64,000 bases of DNA from a virus (IMGVR_UViG_3300031759_000002); one strand, 5' to 3'; numbered from the stretch's first letter, positions 28,572 to 31,476 are shown. The notes: generated by a model not told the origin, from the letters alone. Made by a program: numbers and translations.

Positions 28572-29216
28572 TCATAATTGTTTAAGTTTAACTCCGGTTT
28601 CATCTATAATAGCATAATGATTATGTTTTAATGCTCCTATACTTATTCTTTTAGTGGTTAAATTATTATATTCCTCTATGAATGGAACGTGTAAATGTCC
28701 ATGACACACTCCTATACAGTCGTGAGTTATGCTAAAATTAGATATAAATTCTTCTCGTGATAGAGTTCCTTTGTCTTTTCTGCCCCATACATCTTTAGGT
28801 AAATGATGGTATAATAAATAATATTTACCATTTGATACATTTAATTTAATGCCTCTTGGTAATTCGTTTAAATATTTACATTGATGTTTTGGTAACTTAT
28901 AATCATCAATATCCAATGAGTTATGAATATCCAAAAACATGACGGTATTTCCATTTACAACACCTGAAATATGTTCTTCATGGTTGCCAGAACACGCCGG
29001 TATATCATTATCTATAAAATATTGTATAGTTCGTTGGTTTGAATTATTACCTGTAGAGTATAAATCGGTAATATCTCCTAAACATAATATTTTATTATGA
29101 GGATATAGAGATTTAATTTTCCTCATTTTGTCAATATCACAATGAATGTCACTCACGAGAATTATTGGATAGGATGTAACATTTATTTCTTGAATATTCA
29201 TATATGTTATTGTCAC
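28572..29216 (-). CDS. calcineurin-like metallophosphoesterase
   Basis: ILVSDIHCD, LCLGDITD, GNHEEH, GHLHVPF. These are MPE motifs I to V. Confidence 0.65.
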   Translation of the reverse strand: MTITYMNIQEINVTSYPIILVSDIHCDIDKMRKIKSLYPHNKILCLGDITDLYSTGNNSNQRTIQYFIDNDIPACSGNHEEHISGVVNGNTVMFLDIHNSLDIDDYKLPKHQCKYLNELPRGIKLNVSNGKYYLLYHHLPKDVWGRKDKGTLSREEFISNFSITHDCIGVCHGHLHVPFIEEYNNLTTKRISIGALKHNHYAIIDETGVKLKQL

Positions 29217-29407
29217 TTTTTATGTCACTTTCAATTTTCTAATCGCTAGAAATTAAATATACTATACAAAAAAGAAATGGAATATGTTCTAAAAGTTCTT
29301 ATATAAGAATAACTAACATAAATGGAATGTATAAGATAATAAATTATTTATATCCAAACGGATTTGACTTTGGATTAAAAAGAAAGTTTGATAAAGCAAT
29401 GAATATC

Positions 29408-30088
29408 TTAAATGTATTTCAATCGAATGTTATCGTCTGATATTTCTATATAAGAACAATCCAATTCCGTAAAGCATCCTGAGTTAATATATGGACTATT
29501 AGGAGAAAAGAAAGCAGAATGGCAATGACCCGCTACAATGTAGTCATATCCTTTTTCTTTTGCAAGTGCTTCTGCTTTTCTTTTTGTCATCTCGCAAGAT
29601 TTTATAAAGTTTTTACTTCTTCGTTTTAAAACTCTGGCTAATTCTTGTTTTTTAGGACTAAGTAATTGTATATAATAATATATTCCAGTTGCAATTTCGG
29701 TTATAAGTGGAAAATTAGTTATAAATGAATCAAACTCATCGCCATGTAATATATGAAACTTTTTTTCATTACATATAAAATCATAATTATTTTTAAATTC
29801 AAATCCCAATAAATCTGAAATTATGTCGGCAATTTTAGAATCGTGGTTTCCTCTAATATATACAATATGTGTATTTTTACTTAGTTTTCTTAATAATGAT
29901 AATATTTTCCAATCTTTTTTAGATAATCGTTTAAGATGGTCGATGTCAATTATGTCTCCATTTAACACCAGAGTTTCAGTGTTTATATTTTTTAGTAAAG
30001 ATATAAGTTTTATATGTTGGCATACTCCACTGCCTAAATGTAAATCGCTAAGTATTACATATTTTAATCGTTTAACATTGGTTATCAT
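29408..30088 (-). CDS. calcineurin-like metallophosphoesterase (LpxH/YfcE-like)
   Basis: ILSDLHLGS, LNGDIIDIDH, IRGNHDS, HGDEFDS, GHCHSAF. Confidence 0.65.
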   Translation of the reverse strand: MITNVKRLKYVILSDLHLGSGVCQHIKLISLLKNINTETLVLNGDIIDIDHLKRLSKKDWKILSLLRKLSKNTHIVYIRGNHDSKIADIISDLLGFEFKNNYDFICNEKKFHILHGDEFDSFITNFPLITEIATGIYYYIQLLSPKKQELARVLKRRSKNFIKSCEMTKRKAEALAKEKGYDYIVAGHCHSAFFSPNSPYINSGCFTELDCSYIEISDDNIRLKYI

Positions 30089-30122
30089 CTATATAAATAT
30101 CACAGGGAATGAAACAATAGAG

Positions 30123-30608
30123 TTACGATTTCTTTAATAATTTTGGATTTTCAAATATATTACCTATAATTGTAGCGTTTTTCATTTGAATTGCCCGTTC
30201 TAAATCAACAGTATATGTTCCATATTCATCCCCATCATCCGATGCCGATATTAAATCAAAAGAAGCATTGTAATATCTTACCCTATAATTATGCTTATAT
30301 GACTTGTCTTGGTCAGATACCAAGATATCACCTTCATAGATTTCTCTCTTTTTGAAATCTTTCAAGCCGGTAAATTGTTGCAATATATAACGTGGTTTTT
30401 TCACCGCTTTTAGATTTTTAATATATAAATTAGGATTTTTATTTTGAGAATAAGTTGGCTCAATACCTAATGTTCCTATATAATCAATTATTTCTCCGGT
30501 AAAAGTATCAATCGACCAATTAGAAAAACAATGTAAAGATGAACTGTTTTCTACAAATATTTGATTTTGATTATCCCAGATTCTAAATTTTATGATTCTT
30601 TGTTTCAT
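30123..30608 (-). CDS. YopX-family phage protein
   Basis: KFRIWDNQNQ..., IYEGDIL, C-terminal IGNIFENPKLL. Confidence 0.55.
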   Translation of the reverse strand: MKQRIIKFRIWDNQNQIFVENSSSLHCFSNWSIDTFTGEIIDYIGTLGIEPTYSQNKNPNLYIKNLKAVKKPRYILQQFTGLKDFKKREIYEGDILVSDQDKSYKHNYRVRYYNASFDLISASDDGDEYGTYTVDLERAIQMKNATIIGNIFENPKLLKKS

Positions 30609-31014
30609 TATTTTTTAAAATGTCATGGGTTGGGTTTCTATATATTCTATTAAATCCAAACAATCAATGCATAAATCTTGTATATATCTTGCACCATCTG
30701 CTCCATCATAATTATCACGGTCTCCCGATAATATTCTTTCGGCTTCTTGTAATCTATGATTTACTTGTTCTTTTAAATCTGTTAAATATTGTTGTGTCAT
30801 ATATTCCATTTTATATCTTCTTTTTTAAAATAAGCGTTTAATACTGATTTTCCCTCTACTAAGAAAGTTAATAAATCAGTCTCTGCATTTATTTTTTCAG
30901 CCCTTAATTCTCCATTTTCATTCATACAATATGATTTAATATCGAATGCTACTACAAACTTTTTACCGGTAGTTTTTCCTATATTAAGTTTAGGATTTTT
31001 ATTTTGAAAATACA

Positions 31015-31476
31015 TCATAATTTTGATATAAATAAAACTTCATTAAACTCGATAGTATCTGGTCGTTGGTATTTACCTATCATATTTTCTATAACGTGGG
31101 AAGGAACATTCCTACCACCCGAAGCAGCACGTTTAGCATTTCTCTCAATTGCAGTTTCTTTAGTAACTTCAAACACAACCGCAACCGTTTTAGAATTATT
31201 ATCCTTGGCTATATCAAGGAAATCTTTGCGTGTTTTACGATACATATTAGTTGCATCGATTATCACCGAATGACCTTCATTAAGGTATTCTTGTAATCGT
31301 TTACGAGCAATAGAAAATGCTTTTCCTGATACTGATTGGTCGGTTGCATCTCCCGATAATTCTTCTCTAATATCATCGGTGGATATTACACATTCAGCAT
31401 TATGATTCTCACATTTTGATGCCCAAGTTGATTTTCCACTGGATGGGCAGCCTACAAGGATATACACAGTTGTCAT
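31015..31476 (-). CDS. polynucleotide 5'-kinase (T4 Pnk kinase-domain homologue, AAA_33) without a phosphatase domain
   Basis: VGCPSSGKSTWAS versus T4 Pnk GCPGSGKSTWA. VIIDATNMYRKTR versus ISDTNLNPERR. AIERNAKRAASGGRNVPSHVIENM versus [21 protein letters not shown]. GC is higher than in neighbouring genes. Confidence 0.65.
   Translation of the reverse strand: MTTVYILVGCPSSGKSTWASKCENHNAECVISTDDIREELSGDATDQSVSGKAFSIARKRLQEYLNEGHSVIIDATNMYRKTRKDFLDIAKDNNSKTVAVVFEVTKETAIERNAKRAASGGRNVPSHVIENMIGKYQRPDTIEFNEVLFISKL

Follow-up and report, generated by a model that had tools for sequence, protein, structure and literature searches.

The 64,000-nucleotide stretch of viral DNA analysed here (IMGVR_UViG_3300031759_000002; hereafter the window, meaning the whole stretch) carries between positions 34423 and 27429 a region which we read as a translation-apparatus maintenance island made of two modules. 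The first (34423..28572) is an RNA end-healing module with a stand-alone kinase of the polynucleotide kinase type, a cREC protein and the metallophosphoesterase (MPE) MPE-1 as its predicted parts. The second (28154..27429) combines a tRNA of the amber suppressor type, tRNA(CUA), with the gene of PTH2, a peptidyl-tRNA-recycling hydrolase, and the synthesis of PTH2 appears to be gated by the phage's own suppressor tRNA. We assign this two-module reading a probability of about 0.6. An earlier note on the same DNA had listed four minus-strand open reading frames (ORFs), a kinase, two MPEs and PTH2. All four are present as listed; the cREC gene (34025..34423), the tRNA(CUA) (28041..28115) and two TAG codons within PTH2 had been overlooked. 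We infer all enzymatic activities, the actual read-through and its physiological rationale from what was observed, namely gene identities, folds, synteny, in-frame stops, the lack of alternative starts and a covariation between leader stop and suppressor. The window derives from a jumbo phage of ~354 kb which carries translation-related genes, and its GC content is about 30%. Genes were inspected throughout the window (~100 genes), and ~290 kb of the genome lies outside it.

The suppressor tRNA/PTH2 module contains the following features (loci fetched for comparison are numbered L001, L002 and so on).

28127..28154, minus strand: sigma-70-like promoter match TTGACA-16-TATATT (11/12 to the consensus), upstream of the tRNA
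28041..28115, minus strand: tRNA with anticodon CUA (amber suppressor type), class I, A73, CCA encoded (ARAGORN; Rfam RF00005, 63.6 bits, E 1.8e-11)
27859..28038, minus strand: ORF of 59 amino acids (aa) between the tRNA and the PTH2 leader (gene call in L001)
27835..27862, minus strand: sigma-70-like promoter match TTGACA-16-TATACT (11/12 to the consensus), ending 7 nucleotides (nt) before the leader ATG
27429..27827, minus strand: PTH2 gene with the stop-containing leader ATG-AAT-ACA-TAG-ATT-GAT-AGT-CCA-ACA-TAG-GTA... (from translation; Pfam PF01981, E 5e-25)

The earlier note had placed PTH2 beside the kinase cluster. The family assignment holds, but the ORF as given contains two in-frame TAGs (27816..27818 and 27798..27800). 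The protein scores 88.3 bits over profile positions 2-115 (Pfam gathering cut-off 23) and stays below the NCBIfam equivalog cut-off (86.8 versus 126), which points to a divergent, phage-specific clade; no phage-type PTH2 was found in the GTDB species genomes. The Pfam profile begins, at its position 2, right behind the second TAG. Between this TAG and the first beta-strand (beta1) of the window PTH2 there is no ATG, GTG or TTG, the next canonical start lying within beta1, and ATG 27827 is the only usable start. It stands right behind its own promoter, which ends 7 nt before it and thereby implies a leaderless or nearly leaderless mRNA. The layout TTGACATTTT...TATACT...ATG is also present in L081 and L083, and L020 is similar. 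Since the count of sigma-70-like matches in the region is not above that in shuffled sequences, we treat the promoters as supporting evidence. The tRNA(CUA) sits between MPE-1 and PTH2 and is identical in L001 and L002. No close paralog of it is present among the co-located phage tRNAs and acceptor stems vary; neither points to a particular amino acid. The 59-aa ORF has no Pfam match. A 103-aa ORF (27859..28170) was rejected, as it overlaps the tRNA and its 5' part is spurious. Elsewhere in the window the motif AC[AG]TAGGT is not enriched (2 found, 2.35 expected).

The same arrangement recurs in other phages. A metagenome scan for PTH2 gave 62 loci, which pooled with others yielded 21 unique phage-type loci and 36 unique, distant cellular-type loci as controls. 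The nearest in-frame stop before beta1 is TAG in all 21 phage-type loci (controls 14/36); 16 of them offer no ATG, GTG or TTG from that stop to beta1 (controls 0/36), and the fetched locus includes a tRNA(CUA) in 17 (controls 0/36). The TAGs are confined to a short N-terminal leader, never occur within the PTH2 domain and stand in a stereotyped context, ACN-TAG-GTN. Many leaders have 2-5 codons before the stop; those with two TAGs have 5-30 open codons between them. In most loci the tRNA(CUA) lies 8-80 nt from the leader, and in two it lies inside the leader ORF. In L020 and L083 the promoter is followed by the TAG-containing ATG leader, a stop-free tRNA gene in the same frame and then PTH2, the frame staying open across the 75-78 nt of the tRNA gene. 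Loci as different in GC as about 30% and about 50% share the module. L013, on a 368-kb contig from a different jumbo phage of much higher GC, has the tRNA(CUA), ATG-AAT-ACA..., two in-frame TAGs and then ...TLRLYALVRTDLG, and two IMG/VR contigs show the same layout of tRNA(CUA), TAG leader and PTH2.

Cultured phages provide two further cases. In Sinorhizobium phage Phosso, a Shine-Dalgarno sequence is followed by ATG-AAG-TAT-TAG-GTT in frame with PTH2, and a gene annotated 'tRNA-Undet' 4.6 kb upstream of PTH2 is a tRNA(CUA). In Agrobacterium phage Atu_ph07 the equivalent PTH2 leader has an in-frame TGA, not TAG, and the only suppressor tRNA of this phage is reported to be an opal suppressor with anticodon UCA (PMC6102473), located more than 25 kb from its PTH2. 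The covariation between leader stop and suppressor anticodon is the strongest argument for the stop being read by the phage's own tRNA.

Some observations on the annotation and surroundings of these loci may be added. Due to the in-frame stop, gene callers choose an internal Met, 12 codons past the conserved beta1 strand, as the PTH2 start, and the first beta-strand is lost. The JGI call shortens the protein to 106 aa (L001:13728..14048), and GenBank likewise starts Atu_ph07 gp256 (L084) and Phosso XYS97424.1 (L085) at an internal Met, a systematic mis-annotation of the family. At L086:43984..45143 (record 171983..173142), a cysteinyl-tRNA synthetase gene precedes the Phosso tRNA(CUA), and within 400 nt behind the tRNA comes a 250-aa 'serine-tRNA synthetase' which is too short for the N-terminal tRNA-binding arm. 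These neighbours may bear on the amino acid carried by the Phosso suppressor. In L018, an IMG/VR contig, the interval between tRNA(CUA) and PTH2 (2500..2860) contains several tRNA-like stretches (such as GCCTCGGTAGCTCAGTTGG... and ...GGTTCGAGTCCTGCC...CACCA) that ARAGORN does not call and that may be intron-containing or degenerate tRNAs.

We consider it likely that the leader is read through by the phage tRNA(CUA). Full-length PTH2 would then be made only with the suppressor tRNA expressed, intact and charged, and its amount would scale with suppression efficiency, roughly with the square of it where the leader has two TAGs. As to the rationale, we tentatively suggest, at somewhat less than even odds, that the dose of PTH2 is matched to the suppression load. 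Amber suppression would let ribosomes pass normal TAG stops and would increase the amount of stalled or dropped-off peptidyl-tRNA. By this arrangement the phage would couple the output of a peptidyl-tRNA-recycling hydrolase to the very activity creating the need for it. A bolder version, which we regard as rather doubtful, takes the unit of promoter, stop-containing leader, tRNA and PTH2 as a self-contained homeostat for nonsense suppression in jumbo phages of otherwise standard code. The leader stop (TAG with CUA; TGA with UCA in Atu_ph07) would gauge suppression efficiency, and read-through would yield PTH2 in proportion. In the architecture of L020 and L083, read-through ribosomes would moreover traverse and unfold the tRNA precursor and lower tRNA maturation. 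This would be a negative feedback, with one transcript split between becoming tRNA and being translated.

A literature search, incomplete in coverage and taking in the Borges et al. preprint, a 2026 survey of jumbo phages and the papers on Atu_ph07 and AP-J-162, found no description linking PTH2 to suppressor tRNAs; the AP-J-162 paper mentions 'tRNA-Pyl(CUA)' and peptidyl-tRNA hydrolases, separately. Suppressor-gated PTH2 thus appears, as far as this search shows, to be a previously undescribed form of stop-codon translational gating. The nearest known system is phage stop-codon recoding with its 'code change module' of suppressor tRNA, aminoacyl-tRNA synthetase and release factor (Borges et al. 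2021/2022), in which, as proposed here, a phage suppressor tRNA permits genes with in-frame stops and renders their expression delayed or conditional. In contrast to that system, the arrangement found here concerns, within the 64-kb window, one gene with a short N-terminal leader in a stereotyped context. Its target is a tRNA-recycling enzyme instead of lysis or structural genes, the tRNA gene is adjacent to or inside the leader ORF, and elsewhere in the window the code is standard, with TAG as a stop.

The RNA end-healing module and the genes interspersed with it are listed below.

34025..34423, minus strand: cREC_REC protein, 132 aa, predicted cyclic-phosphate-processing receiver domain (Pfam PF20274, E 5.7e-19)
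32727..33743, minus strand: Band_7/SPFH protein between cREC and kinase, with lipoprotein signal peptide MKKQLLIGLLAIGIAATLTGC and LTGC lipobox (phrog_200 'lipoprotein')
31522..32388, opposite to the operon: NUMOD3 homing endonuclease between cREC and kinase (domain match)
31015..31476, minus strand: kinase, stand-alone Pnkp-type polynucleotide 5'-kinase domain, 153 aa (AAA_33, TIGR04075, PDB 4jst)
30615..31018, minus strand: two small function-unassigned ORFs, 73 and 64 aa, the first overlapping the kinase stop codon (ORF list)
30123..30608, minus strand: YopX-family protein, 161 aa (Pfam YopX, E 4.5e-19)
29408..30088, minus strand: MPE-2, LpxH-like metallophosphoesterase with helical lid, 226 aa (Metallophos, E 5.6e-13)
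28572..29201, minus strand: MPE-1, lambda-phosphatase/ApaH/SapH-type metallophosphoesterase, 209-214 aa (Metallophos_2, E 7.6e-9)

The kinase carries the motifs GCPSSGKSTWA and DATNMYRKTR and matches Pfam AAA_33 (E 2.9e-30) and KTI12 (E 3.5e-15) as well as phrog 505 'polynucleotide kinase' (E 1e-26). Pfam gave only AAA_33 and related kinase families, in agreement with the earlier claim that a HAD phosphatase domain is lacking. The enzyme had also been called a close relative of the T4 Pnk kinase domain. Its motifs are indeed Pnk-type, but its closest solved relative is the Clostridium thermocellum Pnkp kinase domain (4jst, E 1.3e-16), followed by PSTK (3a4l, 6e-9) and T4 Pnk (6e-7), and the T4 Pnk match spans chain residues 3-140 only. 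In the alignment with 4jst the Walker A and SxD..R motifs line up. The bacterial Pnkp model TIGR04075 matches with E 1.6e-24 over profile positions 10-139 only, at 86 bits versus a cut-off of 750 bits. A Pnkp-type lambda-phosphatase-like domain is not on the same polypeptide, as the kinase ORF stops at 153 aa and MPE-1 is separate, 1.8 kb off; a Pnkp-type C-terminal adenylyltransferase/ligase domain is likewise lacking. Taken together, the matches support a polynucleotide-kinase-type enzyme, predicted to act as a 5'-OH kinase.

Stand-alone homologs of the kinase form 112 clusters, nearly all of 148-165 aa. Judged from these, the 'split' state is normal for a large stand-alone kinase family and no peculiarity of this phage. 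The identical kinase is found on 16 contigs of 0.2-1 Mb; the query against IMG/VR gave one weak partial locus only. At the DNA level, 8 kb of sequence had no near-identical counterpart among the GenBank phages. Homologs in cultured phages (Bacillus phages Kirov and Chewbecca, Streptomyces phage Enygma) are the N-terminal halves of 'polynucleotide kinase' genes of ~300-330 aa located beside RNA ligases. L013 encodes, 2 kb from its stand-alone kinase, a full T4-type Pnk (10274..11209, minus strand; AAA_33 plus HAD/PNK3P, 311 aa), which indicates that the two kinase types are not redundant alternatives. The 73- and 64-aa ORFs have no Pfam or PHROG match, and relatives likewise carry 2-4 small ORFs behind the kinase. 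The YopX gene is absent from the corresponding position in relatives and is probably unrelated cargo.

Gene order around the kinase was compared in a sample of six diverged relatives on long contigs (47-64% identity; L011, L013, L015, L081, L082, L083). All six have cREC directly or at a short distance upstream of the kinase, preceded in turn by an RNA ligase gene (PF09414, often with PHA02142). A Metallophos gene of 244-283 aa follows 1-2 kb downstream of the kinase in 4/6 (L015, L081, L082, L083), and beyond it these four carry ClpP or HNH genes plus an SNF2 helicase in opposite orientation. One relative, L083, has PTH2 between kinase and MPE. The window keeps this frame with cREC, kinase, the MPEs, an HNH gene (26209..26835) and SNF2 (22450..24078). 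Its cREC protein scores 69 bits (Pfam gathering cut-off 27) and is matched by the orthologs of L011, L013 and L015 at 49-57% identity. As judged by synteny, these data point to cREC, and not a second MPE, as the constant partner of the stand-alone kinase. For cREC the activity is a predicted one: in Iyer et al. 2021 (PMC7824862), cRec is a domain predicted to process 2',3'-cyclic phosphate (or cADPR) and linked to RNA ligases.

The Band_7 gene and the NUMOD3 endonuclease are absent from the relatives' operons. Band_7/SPFH proteins were reportedly proposed by Burroughs and Aravind in 2016 as an RNA-repair scaffold with a tRNA-like RNA. We rejected this idea for the present locus on account of the lipoprotein signal, the absence from the relatives' operons and the tRNA tracking PTH2.

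The ligase deserves separate mention. The earlier note had seen none in the window, and this is borne out by tblastn with the relatives' Rnl1, Rnl2 and PHA02142-type ligases as well as by Pfam scans of the large ORFs, including those of 409 and 873 aa, which gave neither ligase nor RtcB. It had further suggested a search elsewhere in the genome. As regards the Rnl2 type this was unsuccessful, as none of 80 Rnl2-type homologs in the protein database lies on contigs of this phage; in a relative, ligase and kinase do share a contig. The healing module as seen here is incomplete, the ligase being missing.

Both MPEs had been put forward as Pnkp-like phosphatases. For MPE-1 this is in line with its fold, but MPE-2 is LpxH-like and unlinked to kinases. 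Single-sequence PDB searches with either MPE gave nothing significant, and TIGR04075 matched neither at E<=0.01; the folds were assigned via family profiles and AlphaFold2 (AF2) models. The MPE-1 ORF spans 28572..29216, and ATG 29201 is the likelier start, given that homolog alignments begin at residue 6. The family is small, with 70 representatives among 1.84 billion proteins. Its AF2 model (pLDDT 93.5) matches in Foldseek SapH (3qfm, TM 0.73, E 8e-11), ApaH-like 2qjc and lambda phosphatase (1g5b, E 9e-9), then PP1/PP2A; SapH, the closest fold, is an Ap4A hydrolase/phosphodiesterase. D23, H25, G47-D48, N78-H79, H137, G173-H174 and H176 are invariant in the family. Fold and metal ligands (DxH, GD, GNH[ED], H, GHxH) thus place MPE-1 with lambda phosphatase, ApaH and the PPP enzymes, with GDITDLYS and hence without the arginine of GDxxDRG. 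The lambda-phosphatase/ApaH/PP1 clade is also the clade of the Pnkp phosphatase domain.

Fusions of kinase and MPE are known. The 428-aa Phosso and 418-aa Atu_ph07 (gp253) proteins are of this kind; in both phages PTH2 lies three genes upstream of the fusion, and an RNA ligase is no more than about 10 kb away from the fusion. In the Phosso protein the N-terminal half is homologous to the window kinase (E 1.4e-10) and the MPE half is lambda-phosphatase-like. On phrog_8238 (737 positions) the kinase matches positions 1-142 and the relatives' MPE positions 175-315, which indicates the existence of proteins with kinase, MPE and ligase fused. In phrog_246, a family of kinase+MPE fusions, positions 167-364 are matched by MPE-1 (E 2.3e-5), and the kinase and the L015 MPE match this family as well. 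From the modelled fold and this context, MPE-1 is a plausible candidate for the RNA 3'-phosphatase or 2',3'-cyclic phosphodiesterase of a disaggregated Pnkp-like module.

MPE-2 is ~40% identical to bacterial proteins annotated as LpxH. Its family profile matches solved LpxH (5k8k) over the full length including the lid (E 4e-13), and all top 25 Foldseek PDB matches of its AF2 model (pLDDT 92.5) are LpxH. The protein thus has the LpxH core plus lid, and falls short of the LpxH equivalog (NF003743, 27.3 bits versus a cut-off of 134). G80-N81-H82 is invariant in its family and D83 nearly so (GNHD); bona fide LpxH carries GNRD. By these sequence comparisons MPE-2 is LpxH-like, not LpxH. It resembles LpxH (UDP-2,3-diacylglucosamine pyrophosphatase) in the helical lid inserted in the metallophosphoesterase core, and differs in its 13-18% identity to solved structures, the kept GNHD, the phage origin and the lack of lipid A gene context. 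Its orthologs in three other jumbo phages (L007, L008, L010; 49-59% identity) are accompanied within 10 kb by neither a kinase nor a second MPE nor PTH2, and their neighbours include Macro, NADAR, ThyX and patatin genes. As it is LpxH-like and its orthologs have no kinase nearby, MPE-2 probably stands outside the healing module.

From family knowledge and synteny the following mechanism may be proposed. The cREC protein would open 2',3'-cyclic phosphates, MPE-1 would take off the 3'-phosphate, the stand-alone kinase would phosphorylate 5'-OH RNA ends, and an ATP-dependent RNA ligase, co-operonic in relatives and in this phage either elsewhere or lost, would seal the healed ends. MPE-2, YopX and the Band_7 lipoprotein would be unrelated insertions. 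A role against PrrC/RloC or GNAT toxins is possible.

Bacterial Pnkp, as in Clostridium thermocellum (with Hen1), is among the closest known systems. Its kinase domain is the closest solved relative (4jst; TIGR04075), a binuclear MPE that belongs by fold to the lambda-phosphatase clade (MPE-1) lies in the same gene cluster, and with the RNA ligase of the relatives the same three activities would be present. Unlike in Pnkp, the activities are on separate polypeptides, the relatives' ligases are of the Rnl2 or PHA02142 type instead of the Pnkp adenylyltransferase domain, the window has neither ligase nor Hen1, an additional cREC is the most constant partner, and GDITDLYS of MPE-1 lacks the GDxxDRG arginine. 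With the T4 Pnk/Rnl1 pair, which counters PrrC, the system shares phage origin, a P-loop 5'-kinase with the same Walker A GCPSSGKST and the Asp/Arg motif STDDIR, and the linkage to RNA ligase in relatives. In contrast to T4 Pnk it has cREC and MPE in place of a HAD 3'-phosphatase, and the similarity is distant (E 6e-7). The RNA-repair and ribosome-rescue toolkit of jumbo phages, as set out in the available text of Iyer, Anantharaman, Krishnan, Burroughs and Aravind (Iyer et al. 2021, PMC7824862), comprises Pnk kinases, cRec, HAD or, in a minority of phages, calcineurin-like phosphatases, RNA ligases, PTH2 and phage tRNAs. The evidence supports, at the level of predicted gene functions, an RNA end-healing kit of this already predicted kind. 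The coupling of suppressor tRNA and PTH2, the in-frame stops of PTH2 and the operon order of the stand-alone kinase are not described in that part of the article.

Concerning the PTH2 leader, TAG might instead be recoded genome-wide in the late genes, in the style of code 15, with tRNA(CUA) serving this recoding, PTH2 being one of many such genes and the proximity reflecting the clustering of translation genes and tRNA arrays. Recoded phages keep their early genes standard and have in-frame stops in late genes (preprint of Borges et al.), the window contains mostly replication and accessory genes, TAG stops are rare in it, and several PTH2 loci lie within tRNA arrays. We nevertheless consider this explanation improbable. 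PTH2 is the sole gene in the 64 kb that needs TAG read-through, several good genes end in TAG (among the long ORFs, 6 of 103 in the window and 5 of 81 in Phosso), and the coding density under code 11 is about complete already, the standard-code ORFs of at least 100 aa summing to 21,000 aa. The behaviour of TAG as a rare but genuine stop makes general recoding less likely for this part of the genome. Of the marks of a TAG-recoded genome, the suppressor tRNA(CUA) is present, while many in-frame-TAG genes and a low standard-code density are not found within the 64 kb. Recoding would also leave unaccounted for the confinement of the TAGs to a short leader with the ACN-TAG-GTN context, the closeness of the tRNA, the normal gene lengths of Atu_ph07 and Phosso as annotated in the standard code, and the switch of the Atu_ph07 leader to TGA to match its opal suppressor. 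A further explanation dispenses with suppression. The short ATG...TAG would be a terminated mini-ORF, either a regulatory upstream ORF or a minigene like lambda bar that makes peptidyl-tRNA, and PTH2 would be produced by re-initiation or non-canonical initiation. In E. coli and phage lambda, minigene-induced drop-off of peptidyl-tRNA has been tied to Pth (bar minigene), the 2-5 codons before many of the TAGs (e.g. ATG-ACG-TAG, ATG-AGA-TAG) fit such a minigene, and a GTG directly follows the TAG in L013, L017 and L021. We hold this to be very improbable in view of the 16 of 21 loci without any start codon between stop and beta1, the open frame between the stops of two-TAG leaders, and the frame kept open across the tRNA gene in L020 and L083. 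Moreover, in every case the suppressor encoded beside the leader or in the same genome decodes the very stop that the leader carries, TGA with UCA included.

As regards the healing module, the earlier note had taken kinase, both MPEs and PTH2 as one RNA-repair and counter-defence kit, in which either or both MPEs would be the 3'-phosphatase and the tRNA would be incidental. The healing kit as such agrees with the ligase and cREC context in all six relatives and with the kinase-MPE fusions, but MPE-2 has to be taken out, and the ligase is absent at the syntenic site. That all four genes form one kit is favoured by their closeness on one strand, by the recurrence of the kinase-MPE linkage in relatives and as fusions and by the PTH2 between kinase and MPE in L083. 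It is improbable, to about the same degree as genome-wide recoding, as MPE-2 is LpxH-like by profile and fold with orthologs adjoining Macro, NADAR, ThyX or patatin genes instead of kinases, no ligase was found, and the most conserved features, cREC, tRNA and in-frame TAGs, are ignored by it. A different enzymology has also to be considered. The kinase might belong to the tRNA-dependent PSTK/KTI12 type and act on the aminoacylated suppressor tRNA, or it might be a small-molecule kinase, and the MPEs might be anti-defence enzymes degrading nucleotide second messengers, Ap4A or ADP-ribose derivatives. PSTK is indeed the second-best family of the kinase (TIGR03574, E 1e-17; 3a4l, E 6e-9; KTI12, E 3.5e-15), the best fold match of MPE-1 is an Ap4A hydrolase, Macro and NADAR genes adjoin the MPE-2 orthologs, the window encodes PARP-like and NMNAT-like proteins, and cADPR has been proposed as a cRec substrate as well. 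Nonetheless this appears quite unlikely: the kinase reaches 64.5 bits with TIGR03574 (cut-off 290) over positions 2-137 of 249 and, with 153 aa, leaves no room for the tRNA-binding domain at the PSTK C-terminus, it matches Pnkp and Pnk more strongly, an RNA ligase is a conserved neighbour in 6/6 relatives, and kinase-MPE-ligase fusions are known.

A number of points weigh against the reading of the region as a healing module plus a suppressor-gated PTH2. The Fisher p-values of the PTH2 survey (about 1e-10) are indicative only, since the loci are phylogenetically related and independence is overstated. Five of the 21 phage-type loci have GTG, ATG or TTG after the last TAG, so that read-through is not strictly required everywhere, and non-canonical initiation of PTH2 is a possible alternative. 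L033 has a TAG leader and no tRNA(CUA) within 907 nt upstream. L081 (8150..8350) has the same promoter, a 'MEDSMNT-TAG-V' leader and an in-frame tRNA(CUA) with no PTH2, the tRNA being followed by a terminator-like hairpin and an unrelated 131-aa gene; this suggests that the TAG leader may belong primarily to the tRNA unit rather than to PTH2. The covariation of stop and anticodon is a single case, with the identity of the Atu_ph07 suppressor taken from the literature (PMC6102473), and the ~290 kb outside the census could hold recoded late genes. On the side of the healing module, L011 and L013 have the kinase and no MPE nearby. The relatives' conserved MPE belongs to another family (DxH, GDYFDD, GNHD, GHTP), the profile of which has no match in the PDB, and which resembles MPE-1 only across the N-terminal motifs; the likeness of MPE-1 to it and to the Phosso fusion consists of shared metal-binding motifs only. 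The closest structure of MPE-1 being an Ap4A hydrolase, its substrates could be nucleotides or proteins. With the ligase absent from the operon, end healing may have no sealing step in this phage. Finally, the enzymatic and expression side of both modules is predicted by comparing sequences and models.

The ligase-cREC-kinase-MPE order adds a well-defined and widespread operon to the predicted RNA-repair repertoire of jumbo phages and offers a concrete trio for biochemistry. Why standard-code phages carry suppressor tRNAs is an open question; here, the suppressor would have at least one dedicated, conserved client which is itself a tRNA-recycling enzyme, suggesting that phages manage the side effects of nonsense suppression. 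Promoter, leader of 3-10 codons and stop codon would form a compact natural read-through sensor, reusable in synthetic biology. Phosso (TAG/CUA) and Atu_ph07 (TGA/UCA) are cultured, so that the gating idea is directly testable.

Further genes in the window code for a family-B DNA polymerase, a clamp-loader ATPase, an EF-Ts homolog, an NMNAT-like protein and a PARP-like protein; two TnpB genes and many homing endonucleases are also present. The TnpB/OrfB_IS605-type genes (40645..41757 and 49772..50911, both plus strand) both end in TAG. An active amber suppressor would extend both proteins, and the TAG stops may mark recent arrivals. A read-through candidate at 39811..40491 was rejected, as L011 has two separate overlapping genes there. 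The PARP-like protein (44867..46141, minus strand; 424 aa) combines a PARP catalytic domain (E 7.6e-21) with a eukaryote-type PARP regulatory domain (E 2.5e-9), and L083 has a comparable WGR-PARP_reg-PARP gene close to its kinase operon. The phage elongation factor Ts homolog (57474..58142, plus strand; Pfam EF_TS, E 4.5e-26) is preceded by an R2K-clade ATP-grasp gene (56280..57158) and followed by the NMNAT-like cytidylyltransferase (58393..59505). Homing endonucleases (GIY-YIG, HNH, NUMOD3, LAGLIDADG) are dense at 10176..12884 (plus strand) and at 26209..26835, 38088..39038 and 43957..44817 (minus strand). A glycosyltransferase gene (10954..12039) adjoins a hexapeptide-repeat acyltransferase gene (12036..12884).

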